Of a stretch of DNA of 64,000 nt, positions 23,409 to 42,154 are shown in pieces. The stretch spans positions 74,718 through 138,717 of the forward strand of contig CAZPBY010000001.1 of the NCBI GenBank assembly GCA_964584785.1. Direction: 5' to 3'. The stretch comes from an uncultured Solibacteraceae bacterium. Lineage in GTDB: Bacteria > Acidobacteriota > Terriglobia > 20CM-2-55-15. Below the pieces are notes generated by a model, which worked only from the letters and a program-made list of their open reading frames with translations, had not been told where the DNA came from and did not search any database. A program made the translations under genes and the position numbers. Every line of letters starts with the position of its first letter. Position 1 is the first letter of the stretch.

Positions 23409-24575
23409 CTAGGATTCGATCAGCCTGAAGAGTTCGTCGACCGCCAGTACTTTCATATTCCCAGCGGACACGGTTGTGGAGGGTGCGCCTCGCACGGCCC
23501 GGTGAACGATGAACCCATCGACCTGATAGCCCTTGCCGGCCTCGCGGAGCCGCCGATATGGACCTGCCATGGCAGGCGTCACGGTTCGGGTTGCTTTCGC
23601 TTCGATGGCCATCAGTCTCCGCCGGGAACCGGGAACAACAAAATCGATCTCGAGTCCCTGTTGATCGCGAAAAAAGTACAGCGTTCTGGCCTTTCCAAGC
23701 GAAAGCTGCAGCTTCACGATCTCAGACGCAACGAAGCCTTCAAAGACAGGGCCGAGAAACGGCGATCCGTTGAGCATCGATTGAGATTCGATTCCGAGAA
23801 GGTGGCACGCCAGGCCCGAATCCGCAAAATACAACTTTGGCGATTTGATGAGTCGCTTCCCAAAGTTCTCGTAAAACGGAGGAATCAGGAAAATTTGTGA
23901 TGTCACTTCAAGGATCCCGAGCCATTCCGAAATCGTCGGAACAGAAACTCCGAGCGGGGCTGCGAGTTCCGTCCGATTGAGAATTTGCCCGCATCTCGTG
24001 GCGAGCAGCGACAGGAACCGCCGAAATGTCGCGAGGTCGCGAATGGAGCTAATGGCGCGGACATCCCGTTCCAGGTAGGTCTGCACGTATGAACGAAACC
24101 AGATGTCGGATGTTGATGGCCGCGCCAAAACCTCCGGAAACCCACCGCGAAGAAGCGATACCTTTGGTGATTCCTTCAATGAGAGCGGCATCAACTGAAA
24201 CACCGCGGCACGTCCGGCCATGGACTCGCTAACGCCGCGCATTAACGGAGCATCCTGCGAACCGGTAAGCAGCCACTGTCCTTTCTTTTCCGGATGGCGG
24301 TCAATACGCGTCCGGATGTAATTGAGAACCTCCGGCACGTTTTGAATTTCGTCGAAAATCGCCGGAACGGAAGTCTCTTCAACAAACGTTCGCGGATCGT
24401 AGCTGAGGCGCGCGACAACATCCGGATCCTCGAGGAGGTAATACGCCGCGTTGGGAAACATCCGGCGTAGCAGAGTGGTCTTTCCGGAGCGGCGCGGGCC
24501 CGTCAAGATCACCGCCGAAAAAGATTTGACGGCACGCGCCAGGGGATTGCTCAAGAGCCGCGGGATGAATTTCAT
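23409..24575 (-). CDS. AAA+ ATPase with DUF4143-type C-terminus (paralogue of 4381..5574)
   Basis: Walker A GPRRSGKTT. Same architecture as the first copy. Confidence 0.8.
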   Translation of the reverse strand: MKFIPRLLSNPLARAVKSFSAVILTGPRRSGKTTLLRRMFPNAAYYLLEDPDVVARLSYDPRTFVEETSVPAIFDEIQNVPEVLNYIRTRIDRHPEKKGQWLLTGSQDAPLMRGVSESMAGRAAVFQLMPLSLKESPKVSLLRGGFPEVLARPSTSDIWFRSYVQTYLERDVRAISSIRDLATFRRFLSLLATRCGQILNRTELAAPLGVSVPTISEWLGILEVTSQIFLIPPFYENFGKRLIKSPKLYFADSGLACHLLGIESQSMLNGSPFLGPVFEGFVASEIVKLQLSLGKARTLYFFRDQQGLEIDFVVPGSRRRLMAIEAKATRTVTPAMAGPYRRLREAGKGYQVDGFIVHRAVRGAPSTTVSAGNMKVLAVDELFRLIES

Positions 24576-25066
24576 TTGAGAATCCTAAGGTAGAATCTTA
24601 AAAAACTCAAAGCAGGTATGGTGTCCGCATGCGCAGCCGCTGGCCTGTCCGGGGCGGGTGCCTCCCCAGGAGGTAATTCACCTTGTAAGAGGTCGTTATT
24701 TTGCCGGGGCGCTTCAGCGTCCAGGTGTTTCTGCACTCACCCAGTGGCCAGGCGAAGCAGCTGTTCAGCGCGCCTCTCGCAACCACGGCCAACAAGCCAC
24801 AAGGCGCTGCAGACCGTCGAGCGGCGTGTGGGCCGGCTAGTCGTCAGTTGGACCGGCATATTGCGTCTCGACGGCTAAGCCTTGGAAATGATCAGGATGC
24901 CTGCGGGGCCAGACCCGGACCATAGTACCATTCGCGAGGACATGGCTCGGTTTTACGATCTCTTTCACCAAGGATTGGTACAGCGGATCAGGAAGATCCG
25001 CCGGACAAGGAAGTCACGCGAGGCAGGATACTCAGGAACATCAAAAACAAGGACTCTTAAGAGTTG

Positions 25067-25112
25067 ACGGAGCGAATCAGCCAAGATGGCGGGTTCGCTC
25101 CGTTTTCATTTT
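25067..25112 (+). terminator. rho-independent terminator
   Basis: ACGGAGCGAA (25067..25076), a 17-nt loop, then TTCGCTCCGT (25094..25103), followed by TTTCATTTT. It sits directly after the TGA of a 61-codon ORF (24882..25067). Confidence 0.5.
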
Positions 25113-25130: not shown

Positions 25131-25420
25131 TCTTTCATCCACCACAGTCGTTCTCCGAGGCCATTTTATTTGCGGCCGCGAAGATCGTTTGCGGCGCGAA
25201 GAAGATCATTTCGGAAGCGGAAAAGGTTTTGTCCGTTCCGCTAAATACCTTTTCCATCACCGTCAAAGTCTTGTCCGACAGAGAGAACGCCTTTTCCGCC
25301 GATCAAATCATCGTTGCCGCGTCGGCAAAGGCTTTTTGTAGTTCCGCGAATACCTTGTCCGGCACGAACAAAATCATTTCCATCGATGAAAAGATCTTTT
25401 CCGGCGCTGAAATGATGGCC
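25131..25420. repeat. array of ~14 degenerate, head-to-tail ~21-bp direct repeats (noncoding)
   Basis: Units of 19-22 nt with consensus tTCCGnnnnGnaAAAnnnCtt. Examples: gtccgttccgctaaatacctt, ttccatcaccgtcaaagtctt, gtccgacagagagaacgcctt, ttccgccgatcaaatcatcgt. Each unit alternates a GC-rich dyad (e.g. GCCGCGTCGGC, TTCCGCGAA) with an A3-N3-T3 block. The period is about two helical turns. Confidence 0.6.
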
Positions 25421-25592
25421 TCAGCCGGCCACCCTTACAACCAATAGATTGTGTGTTACTTACGCCGTAACCAAACGATCGTTTCAGCGGCTCAAATGAT
25501 CTTTTCAGTGACGGAAAGATCATGTCCGTCTCCCACCAACCTTTTCCCGTGGCGAAGCGAACCGTGGGAGACGGCCAGATCGTCTTGTTCAC

Positions 25593-25817
25593 CTAAAAGA
25601 TGAAGCGCGCCTGCAGTTGGAACATTCGCGGCGGATCGATGTTGGCGAACACCGGGATCGCATTTGTTGCGGCGCCGGCAGCGACGAACTGTCCGAACGT
25701 CGGGTTAACCGTTCCGCTGTCACTGTACACGGTTTGTCCGCGTCTCCTTGCCCATCCGGTGAACCGGGGCCACTCCTCAAAGACATGTCGTACGAACGCC
25801 ACAGGGAACAGCCACAC
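25593..25817 (-). pseudogene. C-terminal remnant of a TonB-dependent-receptor-like outer-membrane protein gene
   Basis: The 74-aa ORF ends ...NIDPPRMFQLQARFIF. This resembles the C-terminal beta-barrel signature of the intact gene at 56613..59630 (...SRQIQLALRFDF). No upstream body is present. It is followed by hairpins GTCTCCCAC/GTGGGAGAC and TGATCTTT/AAAGATCA. Confidence 0.35.
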
Positions 25818-25952: not shown

Positions 25953-27152
25953 ATGAGCTACATCAGTGGGGCGGCGGCGGACGAAAGAGACTTTCCGACC
26001 CTTCTCGCCATCGAGGCTCAGTTCGGCTTTATCCCGAACTTCTTCCGAGCCCAAACGATTCGGCCCGACCTGATCGATGCGGAAGTCGGTCTTGTCGGAG
26101 CGGTGATGCTGCAAGAACGCGCGCTGAGCCGGAAACAGAAGGAGTACATCTTTCTGGCGTGCTCGGCCGACAACCTCAGCACCTATTGCGTCACGGCGCA
26201 CTGTGAGATCGTTCGCATGCTCGGCATCGAAGGGCCCGAGCCGGAGCAGATCGCGCTCGACCATACTGTGGCCGATATTGCCGACGCCGATAAAGCTCTC
26301 CTGGACTTTGCGGTGAAATTAAACAACCACCCCACGAACCTGAGTCGTTCGGACATCGACTCGCTGCGCGGGCACGGCTTTGGCGATGGTCATATCCTCG
26401 AGACGGTCCTCATGGTCGGCCTGGCTAAGTTCGCGAACTTTGTGGCGTTCGGCCTGGGGACGGCGCCGGATTTCGATTCGACGAAAGTGGCCAGTGTTCT
26501 TGGATTGGGAGAGGTTTCCGAAGGACGCGAAAAAGATTTGAATCCTCCGGCCCGAAATTTCACTCTAATAAAGGATGATGATGCGGGTTTAGTCGAACGC
26601 ACTCGACGCGGCGAGCTGGAAGCCTTCGACGAACTCGTGCGGCGCCATCAACAAAGGATCTACCGGACGTTGATGGCAATCACCCGCAAGCCGGACGAAG
26701 CGGAAGATGGGGTCCAGAACGTGTTTATCAAAGCGTTCGAGCATATCGCCGGATTTCAGGGGGCGTCGAAATTCGTGACGTGGCTGACTCGCATCGCAAT
26801 CAATGAAGGGGCGGAACACCTGCGCATGCGTAAGAACCTGGACAGTCTGGACGATCCAGCCGCCGGCGATGACGCCGCCTTTCGGCCACGCAACGTCTCG
26901 CCCTGGGGAAACCCCGAGCAGCTCTATTCCCAGTCAGAACTGCGGCGCACCGTGGAACAAGAACTCCTGAAGCTGCCGGCGAAATACCGCGTACCCGTCA
27001 TACTGCGCGATCTTCAGGAATTTACCGCCGAAGAAACTGCCGAAGTTCTAGGCATCGCCGTGCCGGCGCTGAAATCCCGTTTGTTGCGCGGGCGGATGAT
27101 GTTGCGAGAGGCCCTGGCTCCCAGCATGGGAAGGAGAGCGGCGAATGTTTAA
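25953..27152 (+). CDS. fusion protein: N-terminal AhpD-like/CMD (peroxidase-related) domain + C-terminal ECF sigma-70 family factor
   Basis: Residues 1-~200: CMD family (FGFIPNFFRAQ..., redox motif reduced to S-x-x-x-Y-C-V-T-A-H). Residues ~205-399: sigma region 2 (FDELVRRHQQRIYRTLMAIT...FVTWLTRIAINEGAEHLRMRK) and region 4 (LPAKYRVPVILRDLQEFTAEETAEVLGIAVPALKSRLLRGR). It is a single uninterrupted ORF. Confidence 0.75.
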   Translation: MSYISGAAADERDFPTLLAIEAQFGFIPNFFRAQTIRPDLIDAEVGLVGAVMLQERALSRKQKEYIFLACSADNLSTYCVTAHCEIVRMLGIEGPEPEQIALDHTVADIADADKALLDFAVKLNNHPTNLSRSDIDSLRGHGFGDGHILETVLMVGLAKFANFVAFGLGTAPDFDSTKVASVLGLGEVSEGREKDLNPPARNFTLIKDDDAGLVERTRRGELEAFDELVRRHQQRIYRTLMAITRKPDEAEDGVQNVFIKAFEHIAGFQGASKFVTWLTRIAINEGAEHLRMRKNLDSLDDPAAGDDAAFRPRNVSPWGNPEQLYSQSELRRTVEQELLKLPAKYRVPVILRDLQEFTAEETAEVLGIAVPALKSRLLRGRMMLREALAPSMGRRAANV

Positions 27153-27381
27153 GTGTGAAGAAGTCCTGGCCGAACTGTCGAATTATCTCGACGACCAGGC
27201 AAGCCGGAACATTCGCCAAAAGGTGGAAGAGCATATGCTGCACTGCAACTCGTGCCGGGCGGTATATGACTCGACCCGCAAAACGCTCCGCATCGTGACG
27301 GAAACCGGTTCGTTCGAGTTGTCCGAAAGCGTCTCTACCCGAATCGCGAACAACATCCGAGCCAGGATTCGCGCCAAATAA
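27145..27381 (+). CDS. small soluble zinc-finger (ZAS-type, RsrA-like) anti-sigma factor
   Basis: 78 aa. C4...H30-x3-C34-x2-C37 (MFKCEE...EEHMLHCNSCRAV). It overlaps the sigma gene stop by 8 nt and has an AGGAG SD. Confidence 0.7.
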   Translation: MFKCEEVLAELSNYLDDQASRNIRQKVEEHMLHCNSCRAVYDSTRKTLRIVTETGSFELSESVSTRIANNIRARIRAK

Positions 27382-40290: not shown

Positions 40291-40620
40291 ACCATCAGGA
40301 GGATATCCCGGCAAACGGGATGTAACAAACAAAACACTGGCGTCTGGAAATGGCCTTCAGTCTTCCCCGTCAATACGAACAGAAATGCAAAGCGACATCG
40401 GTTCAGAGCACCTGGCGGACAAAAGTGTCGCAGGCCGCCGGCACAGGTAGGGATAGTCGACAGATTTCGGGGCGCGCGGTAGAATTCGCCGTCCTGCATG
40501 TCCCGCGACGACAACGTGAGCGCCGGCTTCGATGCTGCTCATGATCTTCGGGCGAGCTTTAGAGGCGTCGCCGCGCGTTGCGGAACCGGCGCACCAACGG
40601 TTGGGAGGATTTGAGTTCCC

Positions 40621-40710
40621 GATGAGCGGAGCGAATGCAAGCCCGACAGGGCGCAGCTATTAAACGATGAGCGGAGCGAATGCAAGCCCGACAGGGCGCA
40701 GCTATTAAAT
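40621..40710 (+). repeat. two tandem copies of a 45-nt element carrying a 13-codon ORF ([13 protein letters not shown]), abutting the MFS start codon
   Basis: GATGAGCGGAGCGAATGCAAGCCCGACAGGGCGCAGCTATTAAAC, then the same ending ...AAAT. Each copy contains ATG...TAA. The second TAA is 3 nt before the MFS ATG (40712). A third copy lies at 50635. Confidence 0.7.
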
Positions 40711-40711
40711 A

Positions 40712-42154
40712 ATGTCACGGATTGCTGCAAGATTGGAGAGGCTGCCATTCTCGGTGTTTCATCGCCGCCTGCTGCTGATGGGCGGTCTTGGTTACTGCTT
40801 TGACGCCATGGACGCCGCGGTCATCGCCTTCGTGTTACCGGCGTTAATGACTCAGTGGTCGTTGACGAGCGTGCAAGCAGGCGTTCTCTCGAGCGCCACC
40901 TTCATCGGGTACTTCTTTGGGGCATTGGGGGCAGGCACGGCCGGCGATCTGATCGGCCGGCGCAGGATCATGATGTGGGCTCTGGTGATCTACTGCGTGG
41001 CCTCCTTCATCAGTGCCTTCGTTACATCGGCCACTCCGTTTTTCTGGCTGCGCGTCCTTGCGGGCGTCGGCACAGGCGCGGAAAGCGTCATCGTCGCTCC
41101 GTTTCTTTCGGAGTTCGTGCCGAAAACCTACCGCGGTCGATTCATTGGCGCCTTGGCGGGTTTCTTTTCATTCGGATTTTTCGGTGCCGCCGTCCTCGGC
41201 TACGCGCTGGTGCCGGCCACACTGTGGGGATGGCGGCTTGCGATCGTCATTACCGCACTCCCGATCCTGTTGCTCCTGTGGTGGCGAAGGGCGTTGCCGG
41301 AGTCGCCGCGCTGGCTCGAGAGCCGCGGCCGAATATCCGCGGCCGAAGCCGTTATGACGCGCATCGAAGAGGAAATTCTCCAGACACGCCGGCAACCGCT
41401 GACGCAGCCGGAACCCGTGCCGGCTTTCGATTTCAATCAGCAAGGCGGGTCGCAGGGCGGATCGGTCTGGACCAATATCGCAACCCTCGTTTCTCCTCCG
41501 CTGACGCGTATCGCCGTAATGACGTGGGCGCTGTGGCTGTCGATCACGTTTTCCTATTACAGCTTCTTTACCTGGATACCGACTCTGCTGGTTCAAAGCG
41601 GCATGACCATGACGCGCAGTTTCGCCTATTCGATCTCGATTTATGCCGCGATGATTCCCGGCTACTACTCTGCAGCTTTTTTCAACGACCGCATCGGCCG
41701 TCGGGCGATCATTGTGTCGTACCTGCTCCTGGGTGGTGTGGCGGCGATAGGGCTTGCCATGGCCCACTCCAACCCGCAGATTATTCTTGCCGGCGTGTGT
41801 TTATCTTTCTTTATGAACGGGGTCTACGCAGGCGTGTATGCCTACACTGCCGAGGTCTTTCCGACGCGGATCCGAACGACGGGAGTCGGTCTGGCGTCAG
41901 CGGTGGGCCGACTGGGCGCCATCAGTGCTCCGATTCTCGTCGGAGCGATCTTCCCCAGATTCGGTTTCGCAGGTGTGTTCGGTGTGACGACATTCGTTTT
42001 GATCGCCGGAGCGGTGGTGGTTTTTGTGTTCGGGATACGCACGGAGGGGCGTTCCCTGGAGGCCATTGCTGCCGGGGCACAACTGACACGGAAGAGGAAT
42101 TCGAAATTGAACGAGTCCTGCATCTCAAATCCGAAATCCGAAATTTCAAAATGA
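40712..42154 (+). CDS. MFS transporter (metabolite:H+ symporter type)
   Basis: 480 aa with 12 predicted TM segments. MFS motifs (GDLIGRRRIM, ...FNDRIGRR). Confidence 0.85.
   Translation: MSRIAARLERLPFSVFHRRLLLMGGLGYCFDAMDAAVIAFVLPALMTQWSLTSVQAGVLSSATFIGYFFGALGAGTAGDLIGRRRIMMWALVIYCVASFISAFVTSATPFFWLRVLAGVGTGAESVIVAPFLSEFVPKTYRGRFIGALAGFFSFGFFGAAVLGYALVPATLWGWRLAIVITALPILLLLWWRRALPESPRWLESRGRISAAEAVMTRIEEEILQTRRQPLTQPEPVPAFDFNQQGGSQGGSVWTNIATLVSPPLTRIAVMTWALWLSITFSYYSFFTWIPTLLVQSGMTMTRSFAYSISIYAAMIPGYYSAAFFNDRIGRRAIIVSYLLLGGVAAIGLAMAHSNPQIILAGVCLSFFMNGVYAGVYAYTAEVFPTRIRTTGVGLASAVGRLGAISAPILVGAIFPRFGFAGVFGVTTFVLIAGAVVVFVFGIRTEGRSLEAIAAGAQLTRKRNSKLNESCISNPKSEISK

Follow-up and report, generated by a model that had tools for sequence, protein, structure and literature searches.

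A two-armed, 21-nt-phased array of degenerate repeats in an uncultured Acidobacteriota bacterium, compared with tandem operators and plasmid centromeres

The ARG boxes bound by hexameric ArgR/AhrC are 18-bp palindromes (consensus TNTGAATWWWWATTCANW) with 3-bp gaps and centres 21 bp apart, and ArgR operators consist of two to three such boxes at promoters. Plasmid centromere and iteron arrays (R1 parC/ParR, F sopC/SopB, pSK41 parC and P1 incA) are built from phased repeats of about 11-43 bp that act as cooperative protein scaffolds, and in R1 parC two repeat clusters flank a promoter-bearing core. Here we describe an array of degenerate 21-nt repeats from an uncultured Solibacteraceae bacterium (contig CAZPBY010000001.1), which shares features with both systems and may likewise be a platform for protein binding. 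The array lies in a 64-kb window, by which we mean the whole stretch of DNA analysed; positions are window coordinates unless a contig is named, and L004, L006 and similar labels denote metagenome contigs carrying related arrays.

The 21-nt periodicity claimed in the original prediction for 25131-25420 was borne out. Over 25131-25560, the base autocorrelation at lags of 21, 42 and 63 nt was 0.44, 0.35 and 0.39, with the lag-21 value above all 2000 shuffles (maximum at any lag, 0.358). A repeat search with a 28-nt reference returned eight copies whose start-to-start spacings (21, 84, 63, 21, 21, 84 and 21 nt) are all multiples of 21, placing them in one 21-nt register. When the sequence was stacked in rows of 21 nt from 25158 to 25556, every unit stood in register with zero indels, so the variable unit lengths (19-22 nt) proposed earlier did not hold. 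The array extends over about 400 nt and comprises about 17 degenerate units (13 units, a 42-nt core, two clear units and two degenerate ones), in the following layout.

25158-25430, no strand: left arm, made up of 13 units of 21 nt in head-to-tail order and exact register; consensus AaAAgATCTTTTCCG.CgC.G
25431-25472, + strand: non-repeat asymmetric core that breaks the repeat, exactly 2 x 21 nt, its two rows unlike the unit
25473-25556, no strand: right arm, with clear units at 25473 and 25494 followed by two degenerate ones, in the phase of the left arm

Both proposed boundaries had to be moved: 25131-25157 is not clearly repeat, and the left arm runs beyond 25420 to 25430, after which the array resumes in phase behind the core. 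The sequence at 25485-25530, formerly read as AAAGATC hairpins echoing the unit, does resemble the unit, but as the second arm and not as a separate motif. Because the units are just about 50% alike, Tandem Repeats Finder (TRF) detected only two short pieces across the array. A two-unit consensus pattern matched three times, always within the array and nowhere else in the window (0.19 matches expected), and a 168-nt pair forms a higher-order repeat. With one unit length, head-to-tail order and gain or loss of whole units between copies, the element is a tandem repeat, and it has the exact register of phased centromere and iteron arrays. These results confirm a real 21-nt periodicity above chance in an array larger than first described.

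Searching 5.8 billion protein clusters with the translated array yielded one homologue, the 119-aa P0001 encoded on the 4.1-kb metagenome contig L004, and a metagenome scan with the same translation returned L004 again and nothing else. The window and L004 share a block from 24878 to about 25746, outside which the flanks are unrelated. Identity within the block is 95% in a non-coding 'head' preceding the array, 89% in the terminator of the head, 81-83% in the array (83% between the left arm and L004 2312-2584) and 94-97% in the last ~120 nt, which include the end of a receptor gene. An exhaustive HMMER search and a word-based search brought up some 30 short 'hypothetical proteins' consisting of [DEK]-K-[ITVM]-[FLV]-S-x-x heptads, together with unrelated perfect tandem repeats. 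The DNA behind these proteins fell into two types, the second more distant from the window.

Window-type copies: the window, L004, and L006 to L009
L010-type copies: L010/L011, L012/L013, L141, L142/L143 and L147, with the more distant L144 to L146

L012/L013 is annotated as an Acidobacteriota metagenome-assembled genome. All members share the layout of left arm, asymmetric core of ~43 nt and right arm, the 21-nt register recurs in L004, L006, L010, L012 and L144, and the cores are conserved within each type. The window and L006 are 62.5% identical over 315 nt and collinear unit by unit, their one indel being exactly one unit, and the right arm of the window is collinear with L006 645-686. Among L010-type copies the indels measure 21, 42 and 147 nt; L012 has a higher-order repeat of 63 nt, and L010 contains one 20-nt unit. 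Together these comparisons show that the array belongs to a small family, so far made up only of soil or peat metagenome contigs of Acidobacteriota type.

Other searches added no members. When GTDB species genomes were scanned for the window-type core, CTTACAA-N15-17-TTANTTACNNCGTNAC, six matches came up in unrelated phyla, none of them 21-nt periodic and all hence ascribed to chance, and a four-unit degenerate pattern was unspecific against viral contigs, hitting more than 120 unrelated tandem repeats. Multi-unit patterns specific enough for such scans miss degenerate arrays of the window type. Rfam gave only chance-level matches for the window region, L004, L006 and L012, and a full-text literature search returned no description of such arrays. 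On L014 (4885-5280), a probable cyanobacterial contig, a coreless 14-unit 21-bp array with the same consensus (GGACAAnnCCTTTTCC) is directly followed by CAACCAT heptamer repeats resembling short tandemly repeated repetitive sequences. This array may be convergent rather than homologous and, having been found via translation, was not counted as a homologue.

The unit consensus is AAAAGATCTTTT-CCGcCgCgG and carries about 14.6 bits per unit. Conservation of unit positions is unequal in the window array (chi-square p=0.015) and in L010, where A3, A6, T7 and T10 are kept in 22-23 of 23 units and T12 in 21 of 23 (p=3e-7), the remaining positions being kept in ~12-14 of 23. Although otherwise unalignable, arrays of the window and L010 types agree in holding these five positions. 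The flanking CCG/CGG is held too. Two of the invariant pairs, A3/T10 and A6/T7, are symmetric. Reverse-complement self-similarity of the array region reaches 0.44, equal to the direct lag-21 value, with peak offsets 21 apart. Self-complementarity of the units is 36-57% Watson-Crick over the eight positions around either dyad, and pairing at the variable positions (5,8) and (2,11) is close to random (0.2-0.5 paired); the symmetry of the unit rests on singly conserved bases, namely A3/T10, A6/T7 and the flanking CGG/CCG. This dyad symmetry explains the K-x-F-S-like heptads that, as originally predicted, can be read from both strands. The asymmetric unit centre occurs in both orientations (AAGATGG and CCATCTT) on one strand, which fits duplex recognition better than a single-stranded RNA motif. 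The least conserved unit positions are every third base, a coding-like trait; since this set of positions is invariant under the dyad, it singles out no strand.

Comparison of the window with L004 gave 3 indels to 71 substitutions in the array and 5 to 17 in flanking non-coding DNA (Fisher p=0.014). The two 1-nt indels in the left arm (25326 and 25351) lie 25 nt apart and cancel out, and in the right arm the window has lost 1 nt at 25517. The two arrays have diverged by 17-19%, compared with 8 of 49 third codon positions in the adjoining gene. The 21-bp register and a few unit positions are thus shown to be held while most of the array sequence drifts at about the neutral or synonymous rate.

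With its spacing of two helical turns, its conserved positions in rough dyad symmetry and its kept register, the array is compatible with protein binding. The 21.0-bp period, the dyad-symmetric bases, the occurrence of both centre orientations and the intolerance of small indels fit duplex DNA as the functional form. Our best guess, ranked first though held tentatively, is that the array offers same-face, dyad-symmetric sites to an oligomerising DNA-binding protein. Each unit would be a weak, roughly dyad-symmetric site of ~18 bp followed by ~3 bp, so that all site centres would face the same side of the duplex at a spacing of exactly two helical turns. A DNA-binding protein that forms dimers or oligomers would start from a nucleation site, perhaps the core, and cover the two arms cooperatively, much as ArgR occupies tandem ARG boxes and ParR or SopB occupies the centromere arrays of plasmids. 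The nucleoprotein complex so formed would separate convergent transcription units.

The likeness to ARG boxes is one of geometry only: an ~18-bp dyad plus ~3 bp recurs every 21 bp, most clearly in the L010-type unit CGGAAAAGATCTTTTCCG+TGA. Unlike the ARG-box consensus, that of the arrays places GAA and TTC 8 bp apart instead of 6, and the arrays have 13-36 units in two arms around a core and are located between genes or behind them; neither argR nor arginine genes occur nearby. With R1 parC the arrays share the two arms around a core, and with centromere arrays the whole-unit variation in copy number. Their units (~50% identity) are, however, far more degenerate than known centromere repeats and their setting looks chromosomal; blastn against 72,556 plasmids gave no match to the element.

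Several observations weigh against a protein-coated array. No par (parA/parM/parB/parR) or rep gene is among the neighbours in eight loci. The neighbours vary by locus, with no candidate binding protein consistently adjacent, and because they are unlike at every locus no binding protein can be named. There are only about eight independent loci, all metagenomic. Divergence of the array is close to the third-codon-position rate, indicating that sequence constraint is weak. The single reverse-complement peak (0.44) falls within the shuffle maximum of 0.447, so that the evidence for symmetry is the series of peaks. Finally, L010-type copies resemble a transcription unit, which favours an RNA product.

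Repetitive extragenic palindromes (REPs) are known targets of IS110-family elements, and an IS110-family element adjoins the L142 array. REPs and bacterial interspersed mosaic elements are short imperfect palindromes of 20-40 bp with 8-13-bp stems and a GTAG or CGTC tag, intergenic, often 3' of convergent genes and sometimes clustered; REPs are dispersed, singly or as head-to-head dimers, number from tens to thousands and have been proposed to act in termination, mRNA stability or supercoiling (PMC3733652). The present array is likewise intergenic, palindromic and clustered, but it is a single periodic head-to-tail array per locus, with no second array in 64 kb, and its individual units form no stable stem-loop. 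Many spacers of L010-type copies contain CGTC, but it does not form an unpaired tag next to a stem there, and neither the window nor the array loci showed a RAYT gene. Judged from sequence, the element appears to be a variant of known phased or palindromic intergenic repeats, constituting a small family of putative function.

The original prediction had allowed for a decayed repeat-protein gene, and the array could be a coding or recently decayed gene for a small heptad-repeat (beta-roll-like) protein, intact in relatives and frameshifted and stopped in the window. In favour of coding, the period is divisible by three, indels are of whole heptads only, every third unit base is the least conserved, GGAG stands 13 nt ahead of the L004 ATG, and intact open reading frames (ORFs) cover the array in L004 and L006 (P0001, 119 aa; P0004, 134 aa). 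One frame also gives [NK]-x-[FLIV]-S-G-x-x heptads similar to the NxVSGxN repeats of beta-roll ice-binding proteins, with a sub-threshold match to LbR_Ice_bind (PF21300, the grass ice-binding beta-roll; 25.7 bits against a cut-off of 30, E=1.2e-5) and a match to PDB 3ULT at E=0.017 only. The search for an intact orthologue thus did find the 119-aa ORF of L004, but one without protein-level selection. The ratio of non-synonymous to synonymous substitution rates (dN/dS) between the window and L004 is 0.78 (9, 21 and 17 substitutions at codon positions 1, 2 and 3; 0.53-1.43 in the other five frames) and in the K-x-F-S frame of L010-type copies 0.57-0.65 (0.64-1.35 in other frames), so the values of 0.57-0.78 lie within the range of other frames. 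Between the window and L006, differences per codon position are 0.36, 0.34 and 0.42, and each of the six frames gives an amino-acid identity of 0.36-0.43. Copies also differ in frame, which is broken or shifted in the window, L012 and L142: L012 has a 1-nt core indel and an ATG-started ORF in another heptad frame than that of L010, L010 has its 20-nt unit, and in the window two 1-nt insertions (25127 and 25144) put the ATG at 25086, which opens the L004 ORF, out of frame with the heptads. The predicted stop is present as a single TAG in the K-x-F-S frame. Gene callers place the two arms on opposite strands in L012 and L142, the opposite strand is equally open and reads the same heptads, and a 349-aa L010 ORF over the array (P0029) crosses a ParE toxin gene (PF05016, E=3e-19) in antisense orientation. 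Codon use of the array ORFs is atypical (TTT 78% against 36% in genes; TTR for Leu 63% against 24%). AlphaFold2 modelled the heptad protein with a mean predicted local distance difference test score (pLDDT) of 36.9 and a predicted TM-score of 0.26, weak evidence given an alignment of three sequences, and thus without the confident repetitive beta-solenoid of a beta-roll family; purifying selection with conserved start, stop and frame is likewise lacking. The exhaustive search returned no larger intact heptad-protein family, just similar short ORFs and unrelated tandem repeats. The beta-roll resemblance follows from the periodicity and composition of the array DNA; protein coding is not supported, and we consider a gene of this kind, intact or decayed, very improbable. 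Still less credence is due to intrinsically curved DNA, or to an upstream regulatory region of the operon for a fusion of a carboxymuconolactone-decarboxylase-like (CMD) domain with a sigma factor, and its anti-sigma factor. AT-rich and GC-rich blocks do alternate with a 21-bp period, and the L010 and L012 arms are moderately curved in a wedge model. The curved-DNA array suggested at the outset nevertheless failed the same calculation, the ratio of end-to-end to contour length of the window array being 0.914 against 0.920 +/- 0.048 in shuffles, that is, without extra curvature. The array does lie ~400 bp upstream of the CMD-sigma start (25953), so that its description as upstream of the CMD-sigma operon is physically correct, but a functional tie is not borne out: L004 has the receptor gene and no CMD-sigma gene, L006 as well as L004 carries the element but no sigma gene of any kind, array and operon are separated by a receptor-gene remnant plus ~200 nt of unrelated DNA, and the flanks beyond the shared block are unrelated, which speaks against a tie between the two.

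A transcribed repeat RNA ranks second and is nearly as likely as the protein-binding array, though it too is doubtful. It would be a non-coding RNA gene of ~0.45 kb in the window type and ~1 kb in the L010 type, transcribed in the window type either from the core or past the upstream terminator by read-through; its 21-nt modules would offer an RNA-binding protein a multivalent scaffold or sponge, or would pair arm to arm in an imperfect long hairpin. The homology of L010 with L012 has its exact start at TTGACA-N17/18-TAGGGT, conserved apart from the spacer, and all L010-type copies long enough to show their end close with a GC-rich hairpin and T-run, on one strand throughout; L144 retains the terminal hairpin with a different stem and loop, and a U-G wobble in L013 is valid on that strand only. 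The strong terminal hairpin and the conserved -35/-10-like core hexamers of the window array point the same way, and both strands fold far better than shuffles (z -5.1 and -4.4 in the window, -10.6 in L010). The pairing itself argues otherwise: the RNAalifold covariation term is penalising (+12.6), compensatory pairs number 7 of 273 with breaks outnumbering compensations, the best window hairpin (25377-25416 with 25478-25517) gains three pairs and loses seven in L004, and per-unit stems are just ~50% paired. Moreover, indels of 1-2 nt should do little harm to an RNA sponge or a bulged duplex, but none have persisted; motif centres stand in both orientations on one strand, no Rfam match was obtained, and the window array sits behind a strong terminator. 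Like CsrB/RsmZ sponge RNAs, the array has many short repeated motifs along one molecule, and a GGA-rich candidate lies directly upstream (24878-25112), but its dyad symmetry and strict spacing set it apart from them. The arrays show no consistent enrichment of GGA motifs, which occur 3 times on the + and 12 times on the - strand of the window array (p=0.05) and with a mixed pattern in other copies; without a consistent strand-specific excess or an Rfam match, a CsrA sponge reading of the array itself was not supported. Unlikely in our judgement, though well ahead of coding or curvature, is a selfish or neutral palindromic minisatellite, a slippage-prone sequence without host function that expands and contracts by whole units in variable regions rich in mobile elements. 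Such an origin would suit the whole-unit indels between copies, the higher-order repeats (63 nt in L012, the 168-nt pair in the window), divergence near the synonymous rate, the nearby IS91/IS110 transposases and toxin-antitoxin modules, the rearranged and partly decayed surroundings of the window copy and the great rarity of the element in databases. It sits poorly with units that are un-homogenised (~50% identity) yet in exact register, with 1-nt indels that are compensated or depleted, with five held positions common to otherwise unalignable window-type and L010-type arrays, and with one-to-one collinear units between the window and L006 at 62% identity around a conserved unique core.

Three further candidates were tried and rejected. 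A Dam/SeqA-type GATC cluster was considered because of seven GATC sites in the window array, but four GATC-containing unit cores are changed in L004. A replication origin was set aside on account of no GC-skew switch and no dnaA context. Fur-box-like AATGAT/ATCATT motifs beside a TonB-dependent receptor gene were dismissed as well, the array being at the 3' end of that gene and other copies having no such neighbour.

The core and the sequences around the array in the window contain the following features.

24878-25066, + strand: conserved non-coding head, 189 nt, 95% identical to L004; a neighbour of the array and not a family-wide part
25067-25112, + strand: intrinsic terminator of the head, 13-bp stem and UUUUCAUUUU tail (-28.8 kcal/mol, z -5.9)
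25434-25440, + strand: CTTACAA in the core, followed by a 16-nt spacer and by TTACTTAC at 25456-25463
25445-25447, + strand: TAG stop of the K-x-F-S frame, inside the core and shared by L004
25523-25577, no strand: strong closing hairpin, arms 25523-25536 and 25564-25577, an inverted repeat 93% complementary
25593-25746, - strand: remnant of a TonB-dependent-receptor-like outer-membrane gene, its last ~50 codons, at the right edge of the L004-shared block

The core hexamers on the + strand, TTACAA-N16-TACTTA, resemble a -35/-10 pair, suggesting a promoter; they are conserved in the window, L004 and L006 (TTACAA-N16-TAMTTA) while spacer and arms diverge, and a simple promoter scan of the window did not call a promoter at the core. 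The closing hairpin (RNA fold -30.8 kcal/mol, z -3.7) is separated by 16 nt from the stop codon that ends the convergent receptor-gene remnant, and it probably terminates transcription in both directions; the stretch 25561-25592 matches L004 at 97% identity. The head contains 12 GGA and 8 AGGA (4.4 and 1.3 expected; p<0.001) and only one TCC, and GGA is not enriched in the heads of L006, L010, L012 and L144. No ORF is conserved across 24878-25112, and the L004 copy gives a sub-threshold CsrB match; the ATG at 25086 sits in the loop of the head terminator. Head and terminator together (24878-25112, + strand) look like a candidate Csr/Rsm-type sponge small RNA; no csrA-like ORF was found in the window.

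The array occupies a 1.4-kb stretch without a convincing gene between an AAA-ATPase gene (23409-24575, - strand) and the CMD-sigma fusion gene (25953-27152, + strand). The receptor gene is intact in L004 (PF25183 at 9e-41 and PF00593 at 1e-9), and in the window a rearrangement scar at 25593-25817 (- strand) fuses its remnant in frame at ~25746 to an HXXEE-like N-terminus (PF13787, E=8e-5). At 25953-27381 (+ strand), a weak N-terminal carboxymuconolactone-decarboxylase-like domain is fused to extracytoplasmic-function sigma regions 2 and 4, and a zf-HC2 anti-sigma ORF overlaps the end of the CMD-sigma gene by 8 nt. Farther away, a perfect 45-bp tandem duplication at 40620-40709 (2.0 copies, 100% match, TRF score 180) overlaps a looser 24-nt period just upstream of an ORF at 40712. 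The neighbours of the arrays are as follows.

Window: AAA-ATPase and CMD-sigma
L004: HicAB and the receptor gene
L006: an RRM protein and DUF1326
Other arrays: toxin-antitoxin modules with IS91 or IS110

The ParE gene of L010 (5853-6152, - strand) lies beside a PhdYeFM antitoxin gene and is uncalled in the public annotation. IS91-family (Y2) or IS110-family (DEDD) transposase genes adjoin the left end of L010-type arrays (L141 385-1749, L147 1291-2577 and L142 3772-5220), and beside them the head of the L010-type element is truncated at differing points; these arrays may lie in an insertion hot spot or be targets of insertion sequences themselves. Behind the terminator of several L010-type arrays, a conserved small gene start (AAAGGAG-N8-ATG, MLQHVRIADGFRSQSAEQLAATAGGIITGLTGNPAFP...) occurs in L142 (6200-6321), L013 (1-270, - strand) and L141 (3260-3288), the gene matching nothing in Pfam or PHROG, carrying an in-frame stop in L013 and being truncated in L142. 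A downstream gene (MLQHVRIADGFRS...) adjoining some of these copies was rejected as a constant partner of L010-type arrays, being absent from L010 and L144 and without a Pfam or PHROG match.

It is conceivable, though doubtful, that two-armed 21-bp-phased arrays represent an undescribed class of chromosomal nucleoprotein scaffold in Acidobacteriota, or a new class of ~1-kb modular repeat RNA. As a scaffold, a dedicated protein would coat 0.3-0.8 kb from the unique core and thereby form a centromere-, insulator- or roadblock-like element. If either class is real, public gene callers mis-annotate the arrays as 'hypothetical heptad-repeat proteins'. Spurious 60-350-aa 'hypothetical proteins' on either strand already pose an annotation problem, one of them hiding the real ParE toxin gene, and the sub-threshold Pfam match could wrongly suggest an ice-binding protein. 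Even a selfish minisatellite would still be a clear case of an open reading frame that is no gene. Long, strictly phased arrays of degenerate sites are few in bacterial chromosomes, and the phased arrays known to us (plasmid centromeres, iterons and tandem operators) are all protein-coating platforms. That the register and five positions are held while the rest drifts at the neutral rate points to a binding factor, or an RNA, in a poorly studied phylum.

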